Of a DNA stretch of 64,000 nt, positions 1,310-63,673 are shown piece by piece. The notes under the pieces were generated by a model. It searched no databases and was not told the origin of the DNA. It saw only the letters and a list, made by a program, of their open reading frames with translations. A program made the translations under genes and the position numbers. Location of the stretch: the sequence record NC_054920.1; one strand, written 5' to 3'. Numbering within the stretch: the first letter of the stretch is position 1; each line of letters opens with the position of its first letter. This stretch comes from Escherichia phage vB_EcoM_G9062.

Positions 1310-1482
1310 TCAGTGATAAAGTTATTTAAATTTTGAGTATATTTCTTTTCATCAAAAATCTTTTGTTGTCTGCGTAAACGCCATGGCATTTCAATGAACA
1401 TACGCCATATTCCTGATAATACTGCTGCTGTAAAAATATTAACAAGTATAGTTAAAAGAACCCAATCTCCTATTCTGTCCAT
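1291..1482 (-). CDS. Small membrane protein, 63 aa, hypothetical
   Basis: ORF with one hydrophobic helix; C-terminal tail ...FITECRKLK shared with neighbouring ORFs; overlaps nudE start in operon fashion. Confidence 0.5.
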   Translation of the reverse strand: MDRIGDWVLLTILVNIFTAAVLSGIWRMFIEMPWRLRRQQKIFDEKKYTQNLNNFITECRKLK

Positions 1483-1490
1483 TGGATTTT

Positions 1491-1778
1491 TTATAAAAAG
1501 TAAAATACGAACGATGATATAGGAAGACTAATGATATACCACAGAAGAACCTTCTTATCTGTGAACCAATCAGCATTCGTTAACTTAGCGCGACCGTTTT
1601 GAATACATACGAACTTATCATCTGTTACAGTAAATGGCTTAGCTGCTTGATATCCCATTCTAAACTCCCTAATCAACAAATTTTTCATATCTTCGGAACA
1701 ACCATTCCAGTCAACTCTATCAACTGAAATGCCATCATCCCCATCATCTAAATCATACCAGCGAGTTTTTAAAATCAT
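1491..1778 (-). CDS. Hypothetical protein, 95 aa, C-terminal hydrophobic segment
   Basis: ORF; ATGA-type overlap with upstream gene at 1775-1778. Confidence 0.5.
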   Translation of the reverse strand: MILKTRWYDLDDGDDGISVDRVDWNGCSEDMKNLLIREFRMGYQAAKPFTVTDDKFVCIQNGRAKLTNADWFTDKKVLLWYIISLPISSFVFYFL

Positions 1779-2137
1779 TTAATTTTCCTACAATCACTCA
1801 CAAACTCTTTCATTGACTCATTTTCAATATAAGACATGTAGCTATTATATTCTTTTAATTGTATTTTGTAATCCTTTTTTCTTTGCCAATTTATTTTAAA
1901 ATTATCATAATGAAAATATAACATGGTACCAAAGAATGAAAATAATGAAATCGCTATAGTAAAACGAAGTTCACTCCAAACCTCTGTTATAATTACTGTG
2001 CCGTCGATATTTAAAATAAAACAGTCAATTAACAATCCAATAAGACTACCCGCAAGAGCTGTAAATACTGATACAGCAAGAATTAATAGTGCCTCAGGAA
2101 ACGAATATTTGACTTTATTTAGTTTTGGCTTTTGCAT
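1775..2137 (-). CDS. Small membrane protein, 120 aa, hypothetical
   Basis: Two predicted hydrophobic helices; C-terminal ...EFVSDCRKIK tail paralogous to 1291-1482. Confidence 0.5.
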   Translation of the reverse strand: MQKPKLNKVKYSFPEALLILAVSVFTALAGSLIGLLIDCFILNIDGTVIITEVWSELRFTIAISLFSFFGTMLYFHYDNFKINWQRKKDYKIQLKEYNSYMSYIENESMKEFVSDCRKIK

Positions 2138-2532
2138 CGTGATTCCTTAACAAATTTCATAATTTCATCAAATTCATACATATCTAGCTTAAGCTGGTGT
2201 TCCTTTTTAATCTTTTTACACTGAGCTTTCCAATCACGTACACGTTTACGATAATGTCTTCCTTGATACCAGTATCCTACCCAATTTACGGGTACTAATA
2301 AAAGTGGAACTATTAATGGAAGAATTAGCATTAACACAAGTATTTCGCCAGAATCAATATCAGTCATAACATCTAAAACACCTCCAATAATCAATAGAAT
2401 TACAAATGATATGAGTATAACAGGACCTATTAACACATCAGTAGAAATTATCTGACGCTTTGGTTCATACTTCACAGGTTTACTTGGAAGGTATAGTGAT
2501 GGTTTTGACATATTCTCTACATTCCTTAACAA
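2119..2532 (-). CDS. Small membrane protein, 137 aa, hypothetical
   Basis: Two hydrophobic helices; C-terminal tail ...KFVKESRCK resembles the neighbouring paralogs. Confidence 0.5.
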   Translation of the reverse strand: MLRNVENMSKPSLYLPSKPVKYEPKRQIISTDVLIGPVILISFVILLIIGGVLDVMTDIDSGEILVLMLILPLIVPLLLVPVNWVGYWYQGRHYRKRVRDWKAQCKKIKKEHQLKLDMYEFDEIMKFVKESRCKSQN

Positions 2533-3094
2533 ATTTTTCTAGTAATAAATCACTTTCAAAATTGGGATTTTCTACAAATTTATCAAAAAGATCATCAACA
2601 ATAGTTAAGATATTCTTTTTACTAAGAATACGTTTATTTTCATGCTTCGTTTCAGAATCAACTATAAGAGTAAAGAAATATTTCTTGCCCTGAAATTTTA
2701 CAGTAGTATCAATATAAAATAAATTTGACTTTTGTAAATTACGTTTAAACCATGCGTCACTTAAACTATAAACACCGAGATAATCAAAATCGTCGTTTAA
2801 ATAACAAACCGTCCATTCAGGAGAAATGAAATCAGTAAATTCAACATCAAAATCACACGTCAATGAATGAATTGATTCAATACTGTTAATGAGTATTCCA
2901 GGACGTATTAAAGACTTTTTACCTCTAGAAAATCTTCCGGAAAGGCTTTCATCAGTTTCATATGAAGACCCCCAATAGTAATTACGTCCTTCTGCCATGC
3001 GTTTAAGAGCATTTAGTAATTGGTCTGGAACATCAACCTGTCTTTGGAACTCTTCAAACATTGAATTGAAATCACTTTGCATTTTCATTTTCAT
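2480..3094 (-). CDS. Hypothetical protein, 204 aa
   Basis: ORF; C-terminus contains EKFVKECREY, related to the tail motif of the small membrane proteins. Confidence 0.5.
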   Translation of the reverse strand: MKMKMQSDFNSMFEEFQRQVDVPDQLLNALKRMAEGRNYYWGSSYETDESLSGRFSRGKKSLIRPGILINSIESIHSLTCDFDVEFTDFISPEWTVCYLNDDFDYLGVYSLSDAWFKRNLQKSNLFYIDTTVKFQGKKYFFTLIVDSETKHENKRILSKKNILTIVDDLFDKFVENPNFESDLLLEKFVKECREYVKTITIPSK

Positions 3095-3135
3095 TCCTAT
3101 TTACTCCAAGTATAAGGGGCCGAAGCCCCTTATCA

Positions 3136-3729
3136 TTATTTCAGAGAATTAATGTATTCCTGAACATCGGCAGAGGTAGTTTCAACCCCAGAAATATTAC
3201 CGTTAAAGGTTTCAACTCGAGCAAGGGTATCTTCAATATCAACCTTAGTCAGTGCTGCAATTTCAACTACATCATCAGCAGTACTAATTCCAAGGGCATT
3301 TGCTGCACGAGTTTCACGGATATATTCCAATTTAACCGCAAGTTCTTGACGAGCATCATCTAACTCAACTACTTTCTTGGCGATTTCAATTCGCATTTCA
3401 GCATAACCGTCAGCCTTAGTAGTCAACTGCTCAGCTGTTCGACGATATAGTAAACCGAGTTTAGCATGCATTGTTACATCTTGGCCTTCGGAAAGAAGTT
3501 TACGAATTTCACGCTCTTTTGATTCGGCCTGTCGATTCTTTTCGATAACAAGTTCACGAATACGTTTTTCTTCGTTAATAGATTTAACAGAAGCAGTTTT
3601 TAGATCTTTAATTTTATCAAGTAGTTTTGCTGCTGCAGCAGTATACTGTTCTTCGACAGATAGATTTTTAGCCATAGCAGAACCAAGTTTAGTGCGAATA
3701 AACTCAACAATTTTCTTCAGTGTGTTCAT
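3136..3729 (-). CDS. Coiled-coil protein, 197 aa, function unknown
   Basis: ORF with long heptad-like charged segments (…[27 protein letters not shown]…). Confidence 0.55.
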
Positions 3730-4974: not shown

Positions 4975-5007
4975 CTAAAAAGCCCCAACCTTTCGGTCGG
5001 GGCTAAG
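4975..5007 (-). terminator. Rho-independent terminator (copy 1 of an identical 33-bp element)
   Basis: Minus-strand RNA AGCCCCGACC-GAAA-GGUUGGGGCU (GNRA tetraloop, 10-bp stem with one G-U) followed by UUUUUAG. Confidence 0.65.
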
Positions 5008-56355: not shown

Positions 56356-56359
56356 CAAT

Positions 56360-56377
56360 GGGGACCGAAAGGTCCCC
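56360..56377. terminator. Bidirectional terminator hairpin between gene 54 (plus) and the alt region (minus)
   Basis: GGGGACCGAAAGGTCCCC followed by ATATTTTATTT. Confidence 0.65.
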
Positions 56378-56382
56378 ATATT

Positions 56383-56673
56383 TTATTTACGGAATGAAAT
56401 AAAAGCAGCAACTGAAGCAACAGAGGTTTCTTCAATATAAACCTCAATTTTTACCGGAGCTTCTGACTCAAATTTACCTGTTACTACACCTTGGAAAATA
56501 CTTTCAGTCTGTTCTGGCTTTGAAAAATTTTCAGAAGGAAAAATTCCGAACTTTTTATCTGTTCCAAAAATTTTGATAAATTCATCATAAACTGCTTCAT
56601 TAAAAGCGTTATTCCTGCTGATAACGCCTTCAACTACAAGTTCTTGACCTAAAAAGCGTAAAGAAGATTTCAT
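56383..56673 (-). CDS. Hypothetical protein, 96 aa
   Basis: ORF downstream of the alt-like genes. Confidence 0.5.
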   Translation of the reverse strand: MKSSLRFLGQELVVEGVISRNNAFNEAVYDEFIKIFGTDKKFGIFPSENFSKPEQTESIFQGVVTGKFESEAPVKIEVYIEETSVASVAAFISFRK

Positions 56674-56733
56674 TTTGTGTTCCTCATGTTATGTCAGTAA
56701 GACTACTATAACACAACACGAGGGACTTGTAAA

Positions 56734-58791
56734 CTACATTTTGAACTTTTTAGACATTCCGTTGATGTTAACCAAAGAAGCTAAGATTTGAGAAACTTCG
56801 CTTTCCTCTTCTTTTGATTCTTCTACAAGGAATTGATTAAATCCAGCCATTGGACGAACTTCACCAGTTTCCATTAGATGGTCGCCATCATATACTGATT
56901 CTTCTAATTGTTCAGAAGGAGGAACGATTGTACCTTCGATTAGATACTTGTTATAAGCAGTTTCTTTCATAAAGTAAGTACTTACTTTATTAATCTTCAG
57001 TAAAATTCCACGTGGTAGAATAACTTCAGCTTCTGACGGAAATCCTGATAAATGACCCGGAACGATAACTTTGATTCGCTCAGCTCCTTTAATTACCATA
57101 CCCACGCTAGTTTCAGCATCTTCATTAGCATATGTAGAATGACTACCCATATGCATCAAATCTTCTGCATCAACGGAACCTTCTCCTTCACCAGAAAATA
57201 CTGCGCCGGAATCATCTAGAGCCATATAGTTTTTACCATGCTCACCGAAGATATTTGGTTTAAGCGATGTGGATACGAAGTTCTTGAAATAGAACATTTT
57301 ATTTTCAATGTTATGACGCAAAGTTTTAAAGGTAACTTCTTGTCCACGGTAAAGTGTAGTTCCTGGAGGAAGAACTGAACCTTTAGCGAATGCAGAATCA
57401 AGCGTCTCAATATGTTTAATAGCTCGTTCCATATATTCTTCACGGGTAGAATCTGGTTTACCCAAAAGGAACGAGTTCATTTCAACATATGAATCTGCAC
57501 AATAATCTTCAATTACATCAGATTCAGCTTGAGTTAATCCTTTTGGAGTTACTTCAGTGCTTGCGTATTCATATGCCTGAGCAGCAGATTCATTAATCAA
57601 TTTATAAATGCCATTCATGACAAATTGAATAATAGCTGTCTTTTCATCTGGCGTAGCTTTAGAACCTTTAACCAAATCATTGATAATTTTCTTAATAACA
57701 TCAAAGCTATTAGAAATATTAATATCAGCAAGATCGCTTAAAATTTTATCAGTCTTATAATCAAAGAATTCTTTATTCTTTAAATATTCTTGAGAACCTT
57801 GATATGTTATATCGCTCTGTAACTTGATAGATGGATCACGTAAACGTGCATGGGCTAATGCAATATGATTTCGGAAGCTTTCGAGTTCATAATCACTAGA
57901 TTTAAAACGAGAAGCGCTTCTCATACCGCCTATAGCTCCTTTGCTGAAGTTTGAACCAATTTGAATAACGCCAGAGTTCATTGGTCCTTCTGCTTTATAC
58001 ACCGGAACTTTAGATTCAAACTCTTGATATTTCTTAGCAGCGAAGCTATCACCCTGAAGTGAAGCATCAACAGTAGAATATTGAGCTTGTGCTGCTAATC
58101 GACGACTAATTTTAGTTTTTTGAATAACAGCTTGATCCGTGCGCTTATCATTTTCTAAAGCAATAGAAGCAGCAACAGCGACAGCTTTAGGAACAGCATT
58201 ACCTGTTTTAACATCTACATAAACATCACCGACCTTCGATTCAACTTTTGTGAATAACTCAGTTGAAATAGGAGGTACACCTGGAATGTCTTCTAAATTG
58301 GCATTTTTACGGTAAACCATAATATATGCATACTTTTTATCATAGTCCCAGATTTCCTTTAAAAGAACATATCGACCTGCTCCTTTAGTACGTACTAAAC
58401 GGTCAGCAATAACTTGCATTTGACGAGCAGCGCCATTTGTTTTACTCTTTAGTACGCGGAATAAGCATGCATCAATTTTATACTGTTTCATTGTTTGAAG
58501 AGCAGTATCAAAAACAGCGTTAATGACGCCAATTGGATTTCCACCCAAGTTTCTAAGTTTAACCAGTGATAATTTCTCGTTGACACCTATCATTACGATA
58601 TGCATCATTTTATCGCCCGGCTTAACGTTTTTATTTGTATCACCTCCAGAGGTGTATGTACAAAATCTAAATCCAGGAAGCACGCTTTCTTCGCCGGCTT
58701 GAATAGCAAAAATTTGAGGTATTTTATGCTTAGGATTTAAGTTAACAACCGGCGCCGAAGCGCCGTCAAATAATTCTGTAATAAGTTCCAT
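56734..58791 (-). CDS. Alt-like mono-ADP-ribosyltransferase paralog, 685 aa
   Basis: N-terminal 230 aa about 65 percent identical to the adjacent alt; C-terminal R-S-E catalytic triad (TLYRGQ, FVSTSL, EAEVILPRG); divergent middle region. Confidence 0.8.
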   Translation of the reverse strand: MELITELFDGASAPVVNLNPKHKIPQIFAIQAGEESVLPGFRFCTYTSGGDTNKNVKPGDKMMHIVMIGVNEKLSLVKLRNLGGNPIGVINAVFDTALQTMKQYKIDACLFRVLKSKTNGAARQMQVIADRLVRTKGAGRYVLLKEIWDYDKKYAYIMVYRKNANLEDIPGVPPISTELFTKVESKVGDVYVDVKTGNAVPKAVAVAASIALENDKRTDQAVIQKTKISRRLAAQAQYSTVDASLQGDSFAAKKYQEFESKVPVYKAEGPMNSGVIQIGSNFSKGAIGGMRSASRFKSSDYELESFRNHIALAHARLRDPSIKLQSDITYQGSQEYLKNKEFFDYKTDKILSDLADINISNSFDVIKKIINDLVKGSKATPDEKTAIIQFVMNGIYKLINESAAQAYEYASTEVTPKGLTQAESDVIEDYCADSYVEMNSFLLGKPDSTREEYMERAIKHIETLDSAFAKGSVLPPGTTLYRGQEVTFKTLRHNIENKMFYFKNFVSTSLKPNIFGEHGKNYMALDDSGAVFSGEGEGSVDAEDLMHMGSHSTYANEDAETSVGMVIKGAERIKVIVPGHLSGFPSEAEVILPRGILLKINKVSTYFMKETAYNKYLIEGTIVPPSEQLEESVYDGDHLMETGEVRPMAGFNQFLVEESKEEESEVSQILASLVNINGMSKKFKM

Positions 58792-58794
58792 GAT

Positions 58795-60846
58795 TTATCC
58801 TTGAACGAACTTGTAAGGCATGTTTGCAATATCTATGCAAGACGCAATAATTCCAAGAGATGATTCTACTTTCTGTTTAACATTTGATGAAACAAATGAT
58901 GCAAAGTCAACTCTATCTTCTATATCACCTGTCATTGTAACCAATTCACCAGTTTCCATTAAATGGTCTCCGTCATAGATTACCGATTCGGTGAGTTCTT
59001 CTGTGGTCATAACTTCAGCTTGAATAAGCTTGTTGTTAGTTTTAACTGTTCCATCATTGTAAGATGCATCGGTTATTTTATTAACTTTGACCATTAATCC
59101 ACGTGGCAAAATGACTTCCATTTCATTTGAAGGTGCTAAACTTCCACCGGGTAAAACAACATTGACCTTATCAGCCCCAGTAATAACCCATCCAATTCCA
59201 ACTAAATTATCGCTAGAATTTACTAGTCCTTCATCAGTTTTATCAATAGAAACACTTAGACGCTTTTCGTCTGGTAAAACACCTACAGATGAATCAGTCA
59301 TCCAAGTACCAAAAATATTTGGATATAATGATGTTGACACAAAGTTTCTAAAATAAAAAACTCGATTTTTTACCATTGCTTCATATATTGAAGGTAACAT
59401 TCGTTGTGAACGATACAAAGTAATACCTTTTGGTAATCGTTCACCATTTTTAAAGGCTGAATCTAAATTATCAATAGCTTTTTCTATGTCAGATGCTGTC
59501 AAAATACTTGTACGCTCATCTGGATTATATAATCCCAAAAGAGCATTATTTATATCTACATATCCTGAACCTACGTATTCACGAATTCCGCGTTTTTGCG
59601 CCGGTGTGTATTTAGATGAATCTTTATTTTCGACTATAGGATGTAATGACCATCCAGCTGTAAGAGCATATCCACGTAATTCTCTTCGAATAATCTTTGT
59701 TTTTATTGCATTCCAAGAATTTTGTACTAACTCATTTGCAGCATCTTGGTTTAAATGCGAATGTTTGTTAATATTTCTTTCAAACCAAGCACCTTTATAT
59801 TTTTCTAAAGTATCATCGACGATAGAAGCAATAGTTTCTAAAGTTTTTATTGAAGTAATAGATTCTTTTCGTAATCTTTCTAAAGCTTTATTTTTTATTT
59901 CTGTATTAACATCAGATTCTTTATCTTCAGGAATTATAGAAGCTTCTCTGAATGCCATTCCAGCTGTAACACTATTAAGAGCATTCTCTAATGCAAATCC
60001 TGAAGTAGAAATAACAGTTAATTCGTTAGCATCGGAAATTAAAGGCGCATCAGCGGGTTTATTTAATTCTGCTGCTGAAGCCTCAAATTTTTGAAACATC
60101 GGTGTTTCAAATCTAGAAGATTCCAATGATTGACTTTGCGCAATTGCTCTACGGGAAATTTTAACTTTAACGATTACAGCTTGGTCAGAACGTTTATCAT
60201 TTTCTTGTGCAATAGATGCTGCAATTGCCTCATTTTTAGTTACTTGAGCTCCAGTATCTTTATTGATATAAACATCACCGACCTTCGATTCAACTTTAGT
60301 AAAGAGCTCGGTACTAATTTCTGGAACTCCTGGAATGTCTTCTAGTGATACATTTTTGCGATGTATAAGAATATATGCATACTTTTTATCATAATCCCAG
60401 AGTTCCTTAAGAAGGACGTATCTGCCGCCTGAACGACTACGGATAAGTCTATCAGCAATAACTTGAATTTGTCGAGCTTGACCAGCGGTTTTAGACTTAA
60501 GAATACGGAGCATACAAGCATCAATTTTATATTGACGCATTGTTTGCATTGCAACAGTAAAAACTGAATTGATATAATTAATTGGGCTTGGCCCAAGACC
60601 TTTCAATTTAGCAATTGAACCTTTAGCGGTTAATGTAAAAGGAACAATATGCATCATTTTATCGCCCATTTTTAAATCGCGATTAGTATCACCTCCAGAT
60701 GTATAGGTACATAAACGAAAGCCTGGCTGTTCAATTGCATCATCAACGTGAACTGAAAAAATTTGCGGTATTTTCTTCTTTGGATTTAAGTTTGTAATCG
60801 GAAGAGTAGTATCTTCGTCAAATAATTCTGTAATGAGTTCCATCAT
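58795..60846 (-). CDS. alt: Alt ADP-ribosyltransferase (encapsidated, modifies host RNA polymerase alpha), 683 aa
   Basis: MELITELFDEDTTLPITNLNPKKKIPQIF...; C-terminal catalytic motifs TLYRSQ, FVSTSL, EMEVILPRG; length about that of T4 Alt. Confidence 0.85.
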   Translation of the reverse strand: MMELITELFDEDTTLPITNLNPKKKIPQIFSVHVDDAIEQPGFRLCTYTSGGDTNRDLKMGDKMMHIVPFTLTAKGSIAKLKGLGPSPINYINSVFTVAMQTMRQYKIDACMLRILKSKTAGQARQIQVIADRLIRSRSGGRYVLLKELWDYDKKYAYILIHRKNVSLEDIPGVPEISTELFTKVESKVGDVYINKDTGAQVTKNEAIAASIAQENDKRSDQAVIVKVKISRRAIAQSQSLESSRFETPMFQKFEASAAELNKPADAPLISDANELTVISTSGFALENALNSVTAGMAFREASIIPEDKESDVNTEIKNKALERLRKESITSIKTLETIASIVDDTLEKYKGAWFERNINKHSHLNQDAANELVQNSWNAIKTKIIRRELRGYALTAGWSLHPIVENKDSSKYTPAQKRGIREYVGSGYVDINNALLGLYNPDERTSILTASDIEKAIDNLDSAFKNGERLPKGITLYRSQRMLPSIYEAMVKNRVFYFRNFVSTSLYPNIFGTWMTDSSVGVLPDEKRLSVSIDKTDEGLVNSSDNLVGIGWVITGADKVNVVLPGGSLAPSNEMEVILPRGLMVKVNKITDASYNDGTVKTNNKLIQAEVMTTEELTESVIYDGDHLMETGELVTMTGDIEDRVDFASFVSSNVKQKVESSLGIIASCIDIANMPYKFVQG

Positions 60847-60895
60847 ATCCTCTCTAGTGTTTATTCTATTTATAAAATTAAAGGCCCGAAGGCCT

Positions 60896-61084
60896 TTAAT
60901 AATCTATTGGTAAGAGAGTACGGTATATTTCAAACTTTGGACCTTTTTCATAGGCATCAAATGTTTCTGTGAATTTATTATAAGCATATGCATCTACAAA
61001 TTCGAGAATGACTTGTGATACAGAAGTAGAAACATCTCCACCTTCTTTTTGAGCAATGACAATTGTTTCTAAGTAAGCTTTCAT
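60896..61084 (-). CDS. Hypothetical protein, 62 aa
   Basis: ORF between alt and gene 30. Confidence 0.45.
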   Translation of the reverse strand: MKAYLETIVIAQKEGGDVSTSVSQVILEFVDAYAYNKFTETFDAYEKGPKFEIYRTLLPIDY

Positions 61085-62544: not shown

Positions 62545-62810
62545 TGTTCATCCTTTAGAGTTTGGTTTACAGCTCTATTATAAATCAATTCATCATTAAG
62601 CTCAGTCAAAGACCTGTGGTACGTGGTTCTAACTTTATTTCCTTGCATCCAGTGCTTGACGTAAATGAAACCTTGCTCTACACATTTTTTAAAAATTCGT
62701 TCGTCTTTTTGAGCTCGGAATTCTGGATTGCATCTAAAAAATTGATTTACGTGACCGTAATCACGTGTAGTATTACCTTCATTTTCATAAATAGTGTGAA
62801 CAACAAACAT
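62541..62810 (-). CDS. Hypothetical protein, 89 aa
   Basis: ORF; ATGA-type overlap with gene 30. Confidence 0.5.
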   Translation of the reverse strand: MFVVHTIYENEGNTTRDYGHVNQFFRCNPEFRAQKDERIFKKCVEQGFIYVKHWMQGNKVRTTYHRSLTELNDELIYNRAVNQTLKDEQ

Positions 62811-63673
62811 TAGAATGCTCCTTGGAAAATATTATCACCACTAGTAAATCTATTAAAATATCCTGCATCACCAGGCTTAGTATAACTCCACGTATGGAAT
62901 GGATTCATATGATACGGGTGTGTATAATATGGATTATATGGATGTGTATAATATGGATTATACGGATTAAATTCAGGAGTTCTCCAGGTAGTGTTCCAAC
63001 GAAAAGAATCGTTTTTAACCATCTTCTCAATTACATCTTTTATAGCTTTTTCACTATCAAAACTTTCTTTATTTTCCTTCGGTGAAAAAAGCTTATTTTC
63101 TACATCATTCCATGTATAAACTCGCTGCGCAGTTTTTGGAATATTGTCACGCTCTCCTCGAGCCATCCAATAAACAGGAACATTTAATATTTCACTCGCA
63201 TGATCGCAGTGGTGGGCGAGATCGTCAATATAACAAATTACATTATATTTCTCTTTTGCCTTTTTGAATAACTCTTCTTTTGAAGAATCATGACCACACA
63301 TCATTACTTCTGAGAAGGCACCAGGAAAAAGAGCATTCAAATTAAATTGACGATTCAGCAGAGCGTCAATAGAATCACCCAATGCTGTAACAGCTACAAA
63401 ATTATAATCTTCTTTTAATTTGTTAATTACACACAGGGCATCTTTATATGGAGACAAGTAACGAATAAAATCTGAACGATTGTATTTTTCAATTAACTTG
63501 ACGCCAAGTTCTTCATCACAATTAAAGAGTTTACCAGGAGAAATAAATTTCTCATCTTGGATCATTTTTAAAATATGTTCTAACGGAAGATTATATTTCT
63601 GAGCAAAATAAGGAAGGCCTGATTGCCAGCTTAAACATACTCCATCAATATCAGTTAAAATAGTAGGCTTCAT
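62810..63673 (-). CDS. HAD-superfamily-like protein (DxDGV motif) with C-terminal Tyr/Pro/Asn-rich tandem repeat, 287 aa
   Basis: N-terminal LTDIDGV (HAD motif I-like); C-terminal NPYNPYYTHPYNPYYTHPY encoded by a 24-bp tandem repeat. Confidence 0.6.
   Translation of the reverse strand: MKPTILTDIDGVCLSWQSGLPYFAQKYNLPLEHILKMIQDEKFISPGKLFNCDEELGVKLIEKYNRSDFIRYLSPYKDALCVINKLKEDYNFVAVTALGDSIDALLNRQFNLNALFPGAFSEVMMCGHDSSKEELFKKAKEKYNVICYIDDLAHHCDHASEILNVPVYWMARGERDNIPKTAQRVYTWNDVENKLFSPKENKESFDSEKAIKDVIEKMVKNDSFRWNTTWRTPEFNPYNPYYTHPYNPYYTHPYHMNPFHTWSYTKPGDAGYFNRFTSGDNIFQGAF
62919..62966 (-). repeat. 24-bp tandem repeat (2 copies, 1 mismatch) inside the 62810-63673 CDS
   Basis: GTGTATAATATGGATTATATGGAT then GTGTATAATATGGATTATACGGAT on the plus strand; encodes HPYNPYYT x2. 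Confidence 0.85.

Follow-up and report, generated by a model that had tools for sequence, protein, structure and literature searches.

An intact tandem pair of alt-like ADP-ribosyltransferase genes in Escherichia phage vB_EcoM_G9062 and the remnant of its second member in phage T4

The Alt protein of phage T4 is the textbook example of a phage enzyme that is injected with the DNA to reprogram the host. Arg265 of RNA polymerase alpha is a known substrate, of T4 Alt only, and recent work connects Alt with counter-defence against MazF and Mokosh type I. The prohead protease gp21 cuts T4 Alt at ITE-6 and LTE-619, and mass spectrometry gave a product of 68.2 kDa (PMC5694885). ADP-ribosyl transfer has been assayed for T4 Alt only, and its E577A mutant is inactive (PMC11404850). 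Paralogues of alt in several T4-like phages were already listed by Nolan et al. in 2006 (PMC1524935). Here we describe the alt region of Escherichia phage vB_EcoM_G9062 in a stretch of 64,000 nucleotides (NC_054920.1; the window, to which all positions refer unless stated otherwise), where alt is followed by a second full-length gene, alt2 or alt.-2. The tandem pair is already known, already annotated and ordinary for the genus. The comparisons below suggest that the locus is probably a two-slot alt cassette of the T-even phages in which Alt2 is a working, packaged enzyme with distinct targets.

Both genes occupy the late-transcribed minus strand between gene 30/alt.1 and alt.-3/gene 54. The first, alt (slot 1), lies at 58795..60846, and alt2 (slot 2) at 56734..58791; the gap between them in the list of open reading frames (ORFs) is 3 nt. 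Across the window the gene order is 29, 48 and 54 and, on the opposite strand, alt.-3, alt2, alt, alt.1 and the ligase gene 30. A comparison of the 4.8-kb alt region with Tequatrovirus genomes gave hundreds of matches at 97–98.6% identity, the best being phage D5505. The alt product is identical to T4 Alt (NP_049811) at 675 of 682 residues, and alt2 encodes a full-length Alt paralogue of 685 residues. That the two are tandem alt-like ADP-ribosyltransferase paralogues, as a preliminary description of this DNA proposed, is borne out by BLASTP (41% identity overall, E = 1e-164) and by Pfam family PF03496, which scores above its cut-off in both proteins; such scores mean homology, not chance. The same description had both products starting with MELITELFD. 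This is correct for the 685-residue protein, but the ORF of alt starts with MMELITELFD, since two in-frame ATGs open it at 60843..60846: translation from the first gives 683 residues and from the second, at 60843 and used in the T4 annotation, 682. The literature on Alt also differs by one residue, with an N-terminal propeptide of 6 or 7 residues and a catalytic mutant called E577, not E576, which suggests that the residue numbering in papers shifts with the choice of the start Met. If E577 of T4 Alt is counted from the upstream Met, as we infer, it equals E576 of Alt in the window.

Slot 2 of T4 itself holds two small ORFs, alt.-1 (NP_049810, 61 aa) and alt.-2 (NP_049809, 67 aa). The preliminary description left open whether the T4 reference carries both genes, and alignment to the T4 locus shows only these remnants. 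The T4 peptides Alt.-1 and Alt.-2 are near-identical to Alt2 residues 1–54 and 62–116. In the same way phrog_23015 (61 positions) and phrog_15247 (67 positions), which have the lengths of T4 Alt.-1 and Alt.-2, match Alt2 residues 1–56 and 62–117. By blastn the T4 locus is 94.7% identical to window positions 58900–58444 and 99.2% identical to 56753–56621, the alignment being collinear and then jumping. Two lesions account for the T4 arrangement: near codon 54 an A-run has lost 1 nt (−1 frameshift), and 1690 bp are missing between two 9-nt microhomologies, CTAAARAGT. The deleted stretch corresponds to 56754..58443 on the minus strand, about 1.69 kb or codons ~117–680 of alt2. The collinear DNA together with the frameshift and the deletion in T4 means that the window holds the intact gene behind alt.-1 and alt.-2. 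A note in the T4 record attributes these two ORFs to an old duplication that covered the first part of alt; the comparison instead shows a full-length paralogue that was later deleted.

Across phage records, the intact gene is far more common than the deletion. Residues 240–685 of Alt2 were found at an identity of at least 95% in 400 phage records, whereas the T4 deletion junction (111-nt probe, full match) is present in 91 of 496, and the ratio of intact to deleted Alt2 in Tequatrovirus is about 80:20. T2 and T6 each have a 697-aa alt followed by a second gene of 685 aa, and the intact pair also occurs in RB68, Bas35 and Bas40. The second gene is named "alt.-2" in RB32, RB68 and ime09, and "ADP-ribosyltransferase Alt2" in the BASEL phages Bas35 and Bas40. 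The proteins of T2, T6, RB32, RB68, ime09, Bas35 and Bas40 are direct orthologues of the Alt2 examined here, with 96–100% protein identity and the same neighbours. The tandem pair is the rule in Tequatrovirus and T4 is the exception. The records do not show an unusual expansion in phage G9062: most of the genus has the pair, in about 400 of about 500 records and with T2 and T6 among them. It comes close to being universally present, yet it has not already been characterised as two copies of the same activity. G9062 differs from most of the phages named above in slot 1, which in those phages holds a T6-type allele and here a T4-type one. At an identity of at least 90%, the slot-1 effector module is of T4 type in 173 records and of T6 type (697 aa) in 316. 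On the assumption that the T4 deletion is confined to T4-type slot 1, we estimate that a T4-type Alt with an intact Alt2, as in G9062, is a minority arrangement of some 80 records.

The similarity between Alt and Alt2 is distributed very unevenly. Identity is 67% over residues 1–240, in agreement with the roughly 65% first given for the N-terminal third, and falls to 14% over residues 241–415, the centre that had been noticed as strongly diverged; it is 35% in the ADP-ribosyltransferase (ART) domain, residues 416–625, and 46% in the tail. AlphaFold2 (AF2) models of the two proteins have a common layout of an alpha/beta N-terminal domain, a central bundle of 7–8 helices, an ART domain and a disordered tail, the model of Alt having a predicted local distance difference test (pLDDT) score of 80. 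On the minus strand the corresponding parts of Alt2 are the alpha/beta domain with linker helices (residues 1–240, 58072..58791), which includes the propeptide MELITE; the all-helical centre (residues 241–415, 57547..58071), the most diverged part of the pair; the ART catalytic domain (residues 416–625, 56917..57546); and a predicted C-terminal propeptide of low pLDDT (residues 632–685, 56737..56898). Profile-profile comparison of the central regions of the Alt and Alt2 lineages detected no homology (hhalign probability 0.9%). The central helices are modelled with high confidence in both proteins and in a similar pattern, and it is solely from this helix pattern in the AF2 models that the two centres may be described as the same fold, diverged.

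The enzyme family can be assigned in spite of this divergence. PF03496 (ADPrib_exo_Tox) scores 71.9 bits in Alt2 and 123.3 bits in Alt, with a gathering cut-off of 23.4, and phrog_802 is matched end to end by both (E = 4e-256 for Alt2, 2e-263 for Alt). PF26846 (Tevenvirinae_ADPRT) was absent from the Pfam scan of the window proteins, and its assignment rests on precomputed matches to near-identical proteins, namely the 99%-identical cluster P0001, and to the hybrid proteins described below. No NCBIfam model matches Alt or Alt2. A sequence search of solved structures found none for Alt2 and for Alt only a marginal CdtA (E = 0.009), with no structure of Alt itself. The predicted fold of both proteins is C3/VIP2-like and thus an ART fold, with Vis as the top structural match. 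The motifs quoted in the preliminary description are present as given, TLYRGQ, FVSTSL and EAEVILPRG in the 685-residue protein and TLYRSQ, FVSTSL and EMEVILPRG in the 683-residue protein. Neither copy has lost a catalytic residue, the R, S-T-S and E-x-E positions being invariant in a 39-member family alignment. On the minus strand the residues are R482 (57346..57348), S507-T508-S509 (57265..57273) and E587-A-E589 (57025..57033) in Alt2, of which R482, S507, S509, E587 and E589 are invariant in 39/39 sequences. In Alt the corresponding invariant columns span 59116..59412 on the same strand and hold R478 (59410..59412), S503-T504-S505 (59329..59337) and E574-M-E576 (59116..59124). At the level of sequence, Alt2 belongs by every test to the Tevenvirinae Alt family and to the R-S-E clade of ARTs.

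Alt2 is under strong purifying selection. The ratio of nonsynonymous to synonymous substitution rates (dN/dS) for alt2 is 0.01–0.08 overall (7 phages) and low in every domain, with 0.02–0.14 for the central region and 0.00–0.06 for the ART domain among orthologues; the value for Alt is comparable at 0.05. A decaying pseudoenzyme was considered for Alt2 and rejected in view of the invariant catalytic residues together with dN/dS values of 0.01–0.08. Compared with T4 Alt, Alt2 has a longer acidic insert between STS and ExE. In the ARTT (ADP-ribosylating toxin turn-turn) loop the position 3 residues before the first Glu is Phe in Alt2 and Pro in T4-type Alt, and 24 of the 39 family members have Tyr or Phe there. 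The equivalent loop helps to select the substrate in the C3-like and iota-like toxins, where it is called the ARTT loop.

The sites at which T4 Alt is processed are retained in the paralogue. ITE-6 and LEE-631 of Alt2 share alignment columns with ITE-6 and LTE-619 of Alt, and neither Glu varies in any of the 39 sequences. The 68.2-kDa mass of processed T4 Alt was reproduced from the sequence. Cleavage of Alt2 by gp21 at ITE-6 and LEE-631 is predicted, and the putative mature protein, residues 7–631, would have a mass of 69.1 kDa. The N-terminal domain is presumed to be the module for targeting to the prohead core and packaging.

The pair appears to be old. Dhakavirus dhabil has the same order, ligase–alt.1–alt–alt2–alt.-3–gp54, with genes of 686 and 707 aa; its slot-1 and slot-2 proteins are called Dhaka1 and Dhaka2 here. 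Trees and identity tables give different groupings for different parts of these proteins. The C-terminal two-thirds follow the slot: Alt2 and Dhaka2 share 43% of residues in the centre and 57% in the ART domain, and in slot 1 the T6-type protein and Dhaka1 share 64% and 83%, respectively. The N-terminal 240 residues group by genus, with 67% identity between Alt and Alt2 and 64% between Dhaka1 and Dhaka2. Judged from these groupings, the pair is at least as old as the split between Tequatrovirus and Dhakavirus. The pattern can be read as an old duplication, after which the N-terminal domains were homogenised within each genome or co-adapted to the same capsid partners. Slot 1 is itself polymorphic. 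T4-type and T6-type proteins are identical over the N-terminal 245 residues and about 55% identical afterwards, and in the ART domain the T6-type resembles the Dhakavirus slot-1 gene (83%) more than it does the T4-type (64%).

Exchange between the two slots by recombination in the N-terminal domain can be seen directly. In four database proteins, P0003 to P0006, Alt-type sequence gives way to Alt2-type sequence at four different points. A single hybrid gene between alt.1 and alt.-3 was found in a 65-kb metagenomic contig (L007), in the complete genome of ECML-134 and apparently in vB_EcoM_SCS4. Such hybrids, with the N-terminus of Alt and the centre and ART domain of Alt2, lie at 1442..3502 in ECML-134, at 5001..7055 in L007 and at 5001..7061 in L006, in the numbering of those sequences. 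The crossovers in ECML-134 and L007 sit in stretches of 20–30 nt of exact identity common to alt and alt2. Crossover points vary between phages, and the hybrid genes look like products of unequal recombination between the tandem paralogues with loss of the slot-1 effector. Short-read assembly artefacts were considered as a general source of the hybrids and rejected, as alt and alt2 have no exact 31-mer in common and the complete genome of an isolate, ECML-134, carries a hybrid gene. Viable phages with an Alt N-terminus and the remainder of Alt2 as their sole alt gene support the view that the N-terminal domains are interchangeable delivery modules.

With respect to expression, a T4 late-promoter box, TATAAATA, is present at 60867..60874 on the minus strand, about 20 nt upstream of the alt start codon, as identified by pattern search and sequence context; the pattern has 25 matches in the window against 9.6 expected. 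From the 3-nt gap we infer that alt and alt2 are co-transcribed, and GGA stands 7–9 nt upstream of the alt2 ATG. A second exact box, TATAAATA, occurs at 59547..59554 on the minus strand, inside alt and about 750 nt upstream of alt2. This internal box could give alt2 a transcript of its own.

In view of the above, the following course of events can be considered. Alt and alt2 would be transcribed together from the late promoter at 60874..60867, and the shared N-terminal domain would direct both products into the prohead core. There gp21 would trim each of them at I-T-E6 and at an L-x-E site near the C-terminal end, after which both would travel inside the head and be injected together with the DNA. 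In the host, Alt and Alt2 would each act on host proteins as an arginine-specific (E-x-E type) mono-ADP-ribosyltransferase. What is proposed here beyond the sequence comparisons is the co-transcription and, for Alt2, packaging, injection, enzymatic activity and distinct targets. Judged from its conserved features, Alt2 is most likely another arginine-specific enzyme that is packaged and injected, and whose set of targets differs from that of Alt. With a packaging module in common but a centre and a catalytic domain that differ greatly, Alt and Alt2 would most likely have different, perhaps overlapping, sets of host-protein targets, possibly including defence proteins. The argument for altered targets uses the 14% and 35% identities in the centre and the ART domain, the separate long-term conservation of these modules and the difference in the ARTT loop. 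In a preprint, T4 Alt was needed to evade Mokosh type I and Bas37 Alt was no substitute for it (10.1101/2025.11.20.689424); the fact that they are not interchangeable means that Alt variants differ in function. By analogy with the gene numbering of Bas35 and Bas40, the "Alt" Bas37_0033 of the HIDEN-SEQ preprint probably sits in slot 1. A more specific proposal, which we put forward tentatively, is that the cassette recombines and that Alt2 may be a second capsid-delivered effector with a host target of its own, for example a defence system or a translation or RNA-decay factor.

Several observations weigh against a packaged Alt2 with targets of its own. There is no late promoter immediately upstream of alt2, the Pfam score of its ART domain is lower than that of Alt (72 vs 123 bits), and the loop that separates STS from ExE is acidic and has low model confidence. 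The ARTT-loop argument is an analogy with the C3 and iota toxins. In the paper library searched for alt.-1/alt.-2, Alt2 and virion proteomics, no functional study, proteomic detection, activity assay or mutant phenotype of Alt2 was found. In addition, T4 lacks Alt2 and the hybrid-gene phages lack the slot-1 effector, and both are viable. Each effector is therefore individually dispensable, which could equally mean redundancy.

Redundancy is a real alternative. Alt2 would then be a back-up or dosage copy with the same targets as Alt, RNA polymerase alpha Arg265 and the other Alt substrates, and its divergence would be neutral. The natural loss of either effector, Alt2 in T4 and 91 records and the slot-1 module in ECML-134-type hybrids, agrees with this, and so does the E-x-E signature of the arginine type in both copies. 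Yet the two lineages remain distinct, with orthology that follows the slot in both genera, the ART domains are only 35% identical, and strong purifying selection on Alt2 extends to the central region that cannot be aligned with that of Alt. Neutral drift would not keep the Alt2 module at least 95% identical in 400 records, and we consider redundancy unlikely, although it deserves more weight than the two remaining options.

One of these is that Alt2 is made late but neither packaged nor injected, so that it acts in the producing cell or serves as a non-enzymatic component of the prohead core with a vestigial ART domain. Alt has been described as a core protein besides being an enzyme (PMC11404850), which lends this some plausibility, as do the weaker Pfam score of the Alt2 catalytic domain and a literature search that found no direct sign of Alt2 in virions. 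It is nevertheless hard to reconcile with the conservation of the N-terminal domain and both gp21 sites, with invariant catalytic residues and an ART dN/dS of 0.00–0.06, and with viable phages whose one alt gene is a hybrid that joins the Alt N-terminus to the Alt2 effector; we regard it as improbable. About equally improbable is a switch of Alt2 to another class of substrate, such as a nucleic acid, a small molecule or, as in ModB, RNAylation. The class of acceptor does vary among R-S-E ARTs: T4 ModB is reported to attach NAD-capped RNA (bioRxiv 10.1101/2021.06.04.446905), and Vis, the top structural match, was crystallised with agmatine, a small arginine-like acceptor. Nothing in the sequence of Alt2 indicates such a switch, however, and its E-x-E motif and overall fold match the arginine-specific ARTs that modify proteins. 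A packaged Alt2 that acts on its own set of host proteins is the reading we prefer over these alternatives.

The genes and signals around the pair were also inspected. A bidirectional terminator-like hairpin at 56358..56379, between alt.-3 and gene 54, was found by a terminator scan of both strands, and a terminator is annotated here in D5505; it is likely the 3′ end of the alt–alt2(–alt.-3) transcripts. On the minus strand at 60880..60897 a GC-rich hairpin, AAAGGCC-TTCG-GGCCTTT, followed by a T-rich run overlaps the stop codon of alt.1. It lies between alt.1 and the late promoter of alt and looks like a terminator, and D5505 has an annotated terminator at this place too. Downstream of alt2 and outside the paralogue pair, alt.-3 (56383..56673, minus strand) encodes a 96-aa DUF5498 protein according to PF17602 (199 bits) and the T4 annotation. 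A promoter scan gave it a sigma-70-like promoter of its own, TTTACA-17-TATAGT at 56733..56705, with an extended −10 element. In T4, mutants with a C-terminal extension of the alt.-3 protein evade the CmdTAC defence system (PMC11618068). On the other side, alt.1 (60896..61084, minus strand) encodes 62 aa and matches PF24647, "Phage blade protein", with 102 bits; it is mislabelled in several GenBank records, under names such as "siderophore-interacting protein". Further away, upstream of the ligase operon, an ORF of 287 aa (62810..63673, minus strand) has a short tandem peptide repeat at its end (NPYNPYYTHPYNPYYTHPY...).

Most natural T4-like coliphages, T2 and T6 included, probably inject a second Alt enzyme, which is very different from the first and missing from the T4 model. 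If Alt2 has a host target of its own, the composition of the cassette would help to set which hosts and defence systems a T-even phage overcomes, and alt2 would be the source of some of the differences between T4 and T2/T6 in sensitivity to defence systems. Decades of work on T4 only would have missed Alt2 because T4 lost it. With a packaging domain in common, effector modules can be exchanged, fused or deleted, which is relevant to differences in host range and to the engineering of capsid-delivered cargo. To the listed paralogues and existing annotations the present analysis adds the exact lesions in T4, the intact-to-deleted ratio of about 80:20, the slot-wise orthology with N-domain homogenisation and natural hybrids, and the retention of both mapped protease sites in Alt2. 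Together these additions make a concrete case that a probable second injected enzyme has been overlooked because the model phage is without it.

In comparison with known systems, Alt2 is closest to T4 Alt, with which it shares length, the four-part layout, both gp21 sites, the R/STS/ExE residues, the late-gene context, phrog_802, PF26846 and PF03496. It differs in being only 41% identical overall, 14% in the centre and 35% in the ART domain, and in having Phe for Pro in the ARTT loop. The C3-like and binary-toxin ARTs (Vis, C3bot, Certhrax, CDTa, iota, VIP2, SpvB) resemble Alt2 in catalytic fold and R-S-E residues, and the arginine-specific members also in E-x-E. Identity to these toxins is 14–25%, their counterparts to the Alt-specific N-terminal and central regions are lacking, and delivery of Alt2 would be by the capsid, not by secretion or through a pore. 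For the organisation of the cassette the polymorphic toxin systems offer an analogy only, and membership is not claimed: Alt and Alt2 have no immunity gene, are known or proposed phage-injected cargo and comprise the few effector types seen. As in those systems, a constant N-terminal trafficking module precedes divergent C-terminal effectors, and recombination in the conserved part gives new combinations, here the hybrids and the T4- and T6-type alleles.

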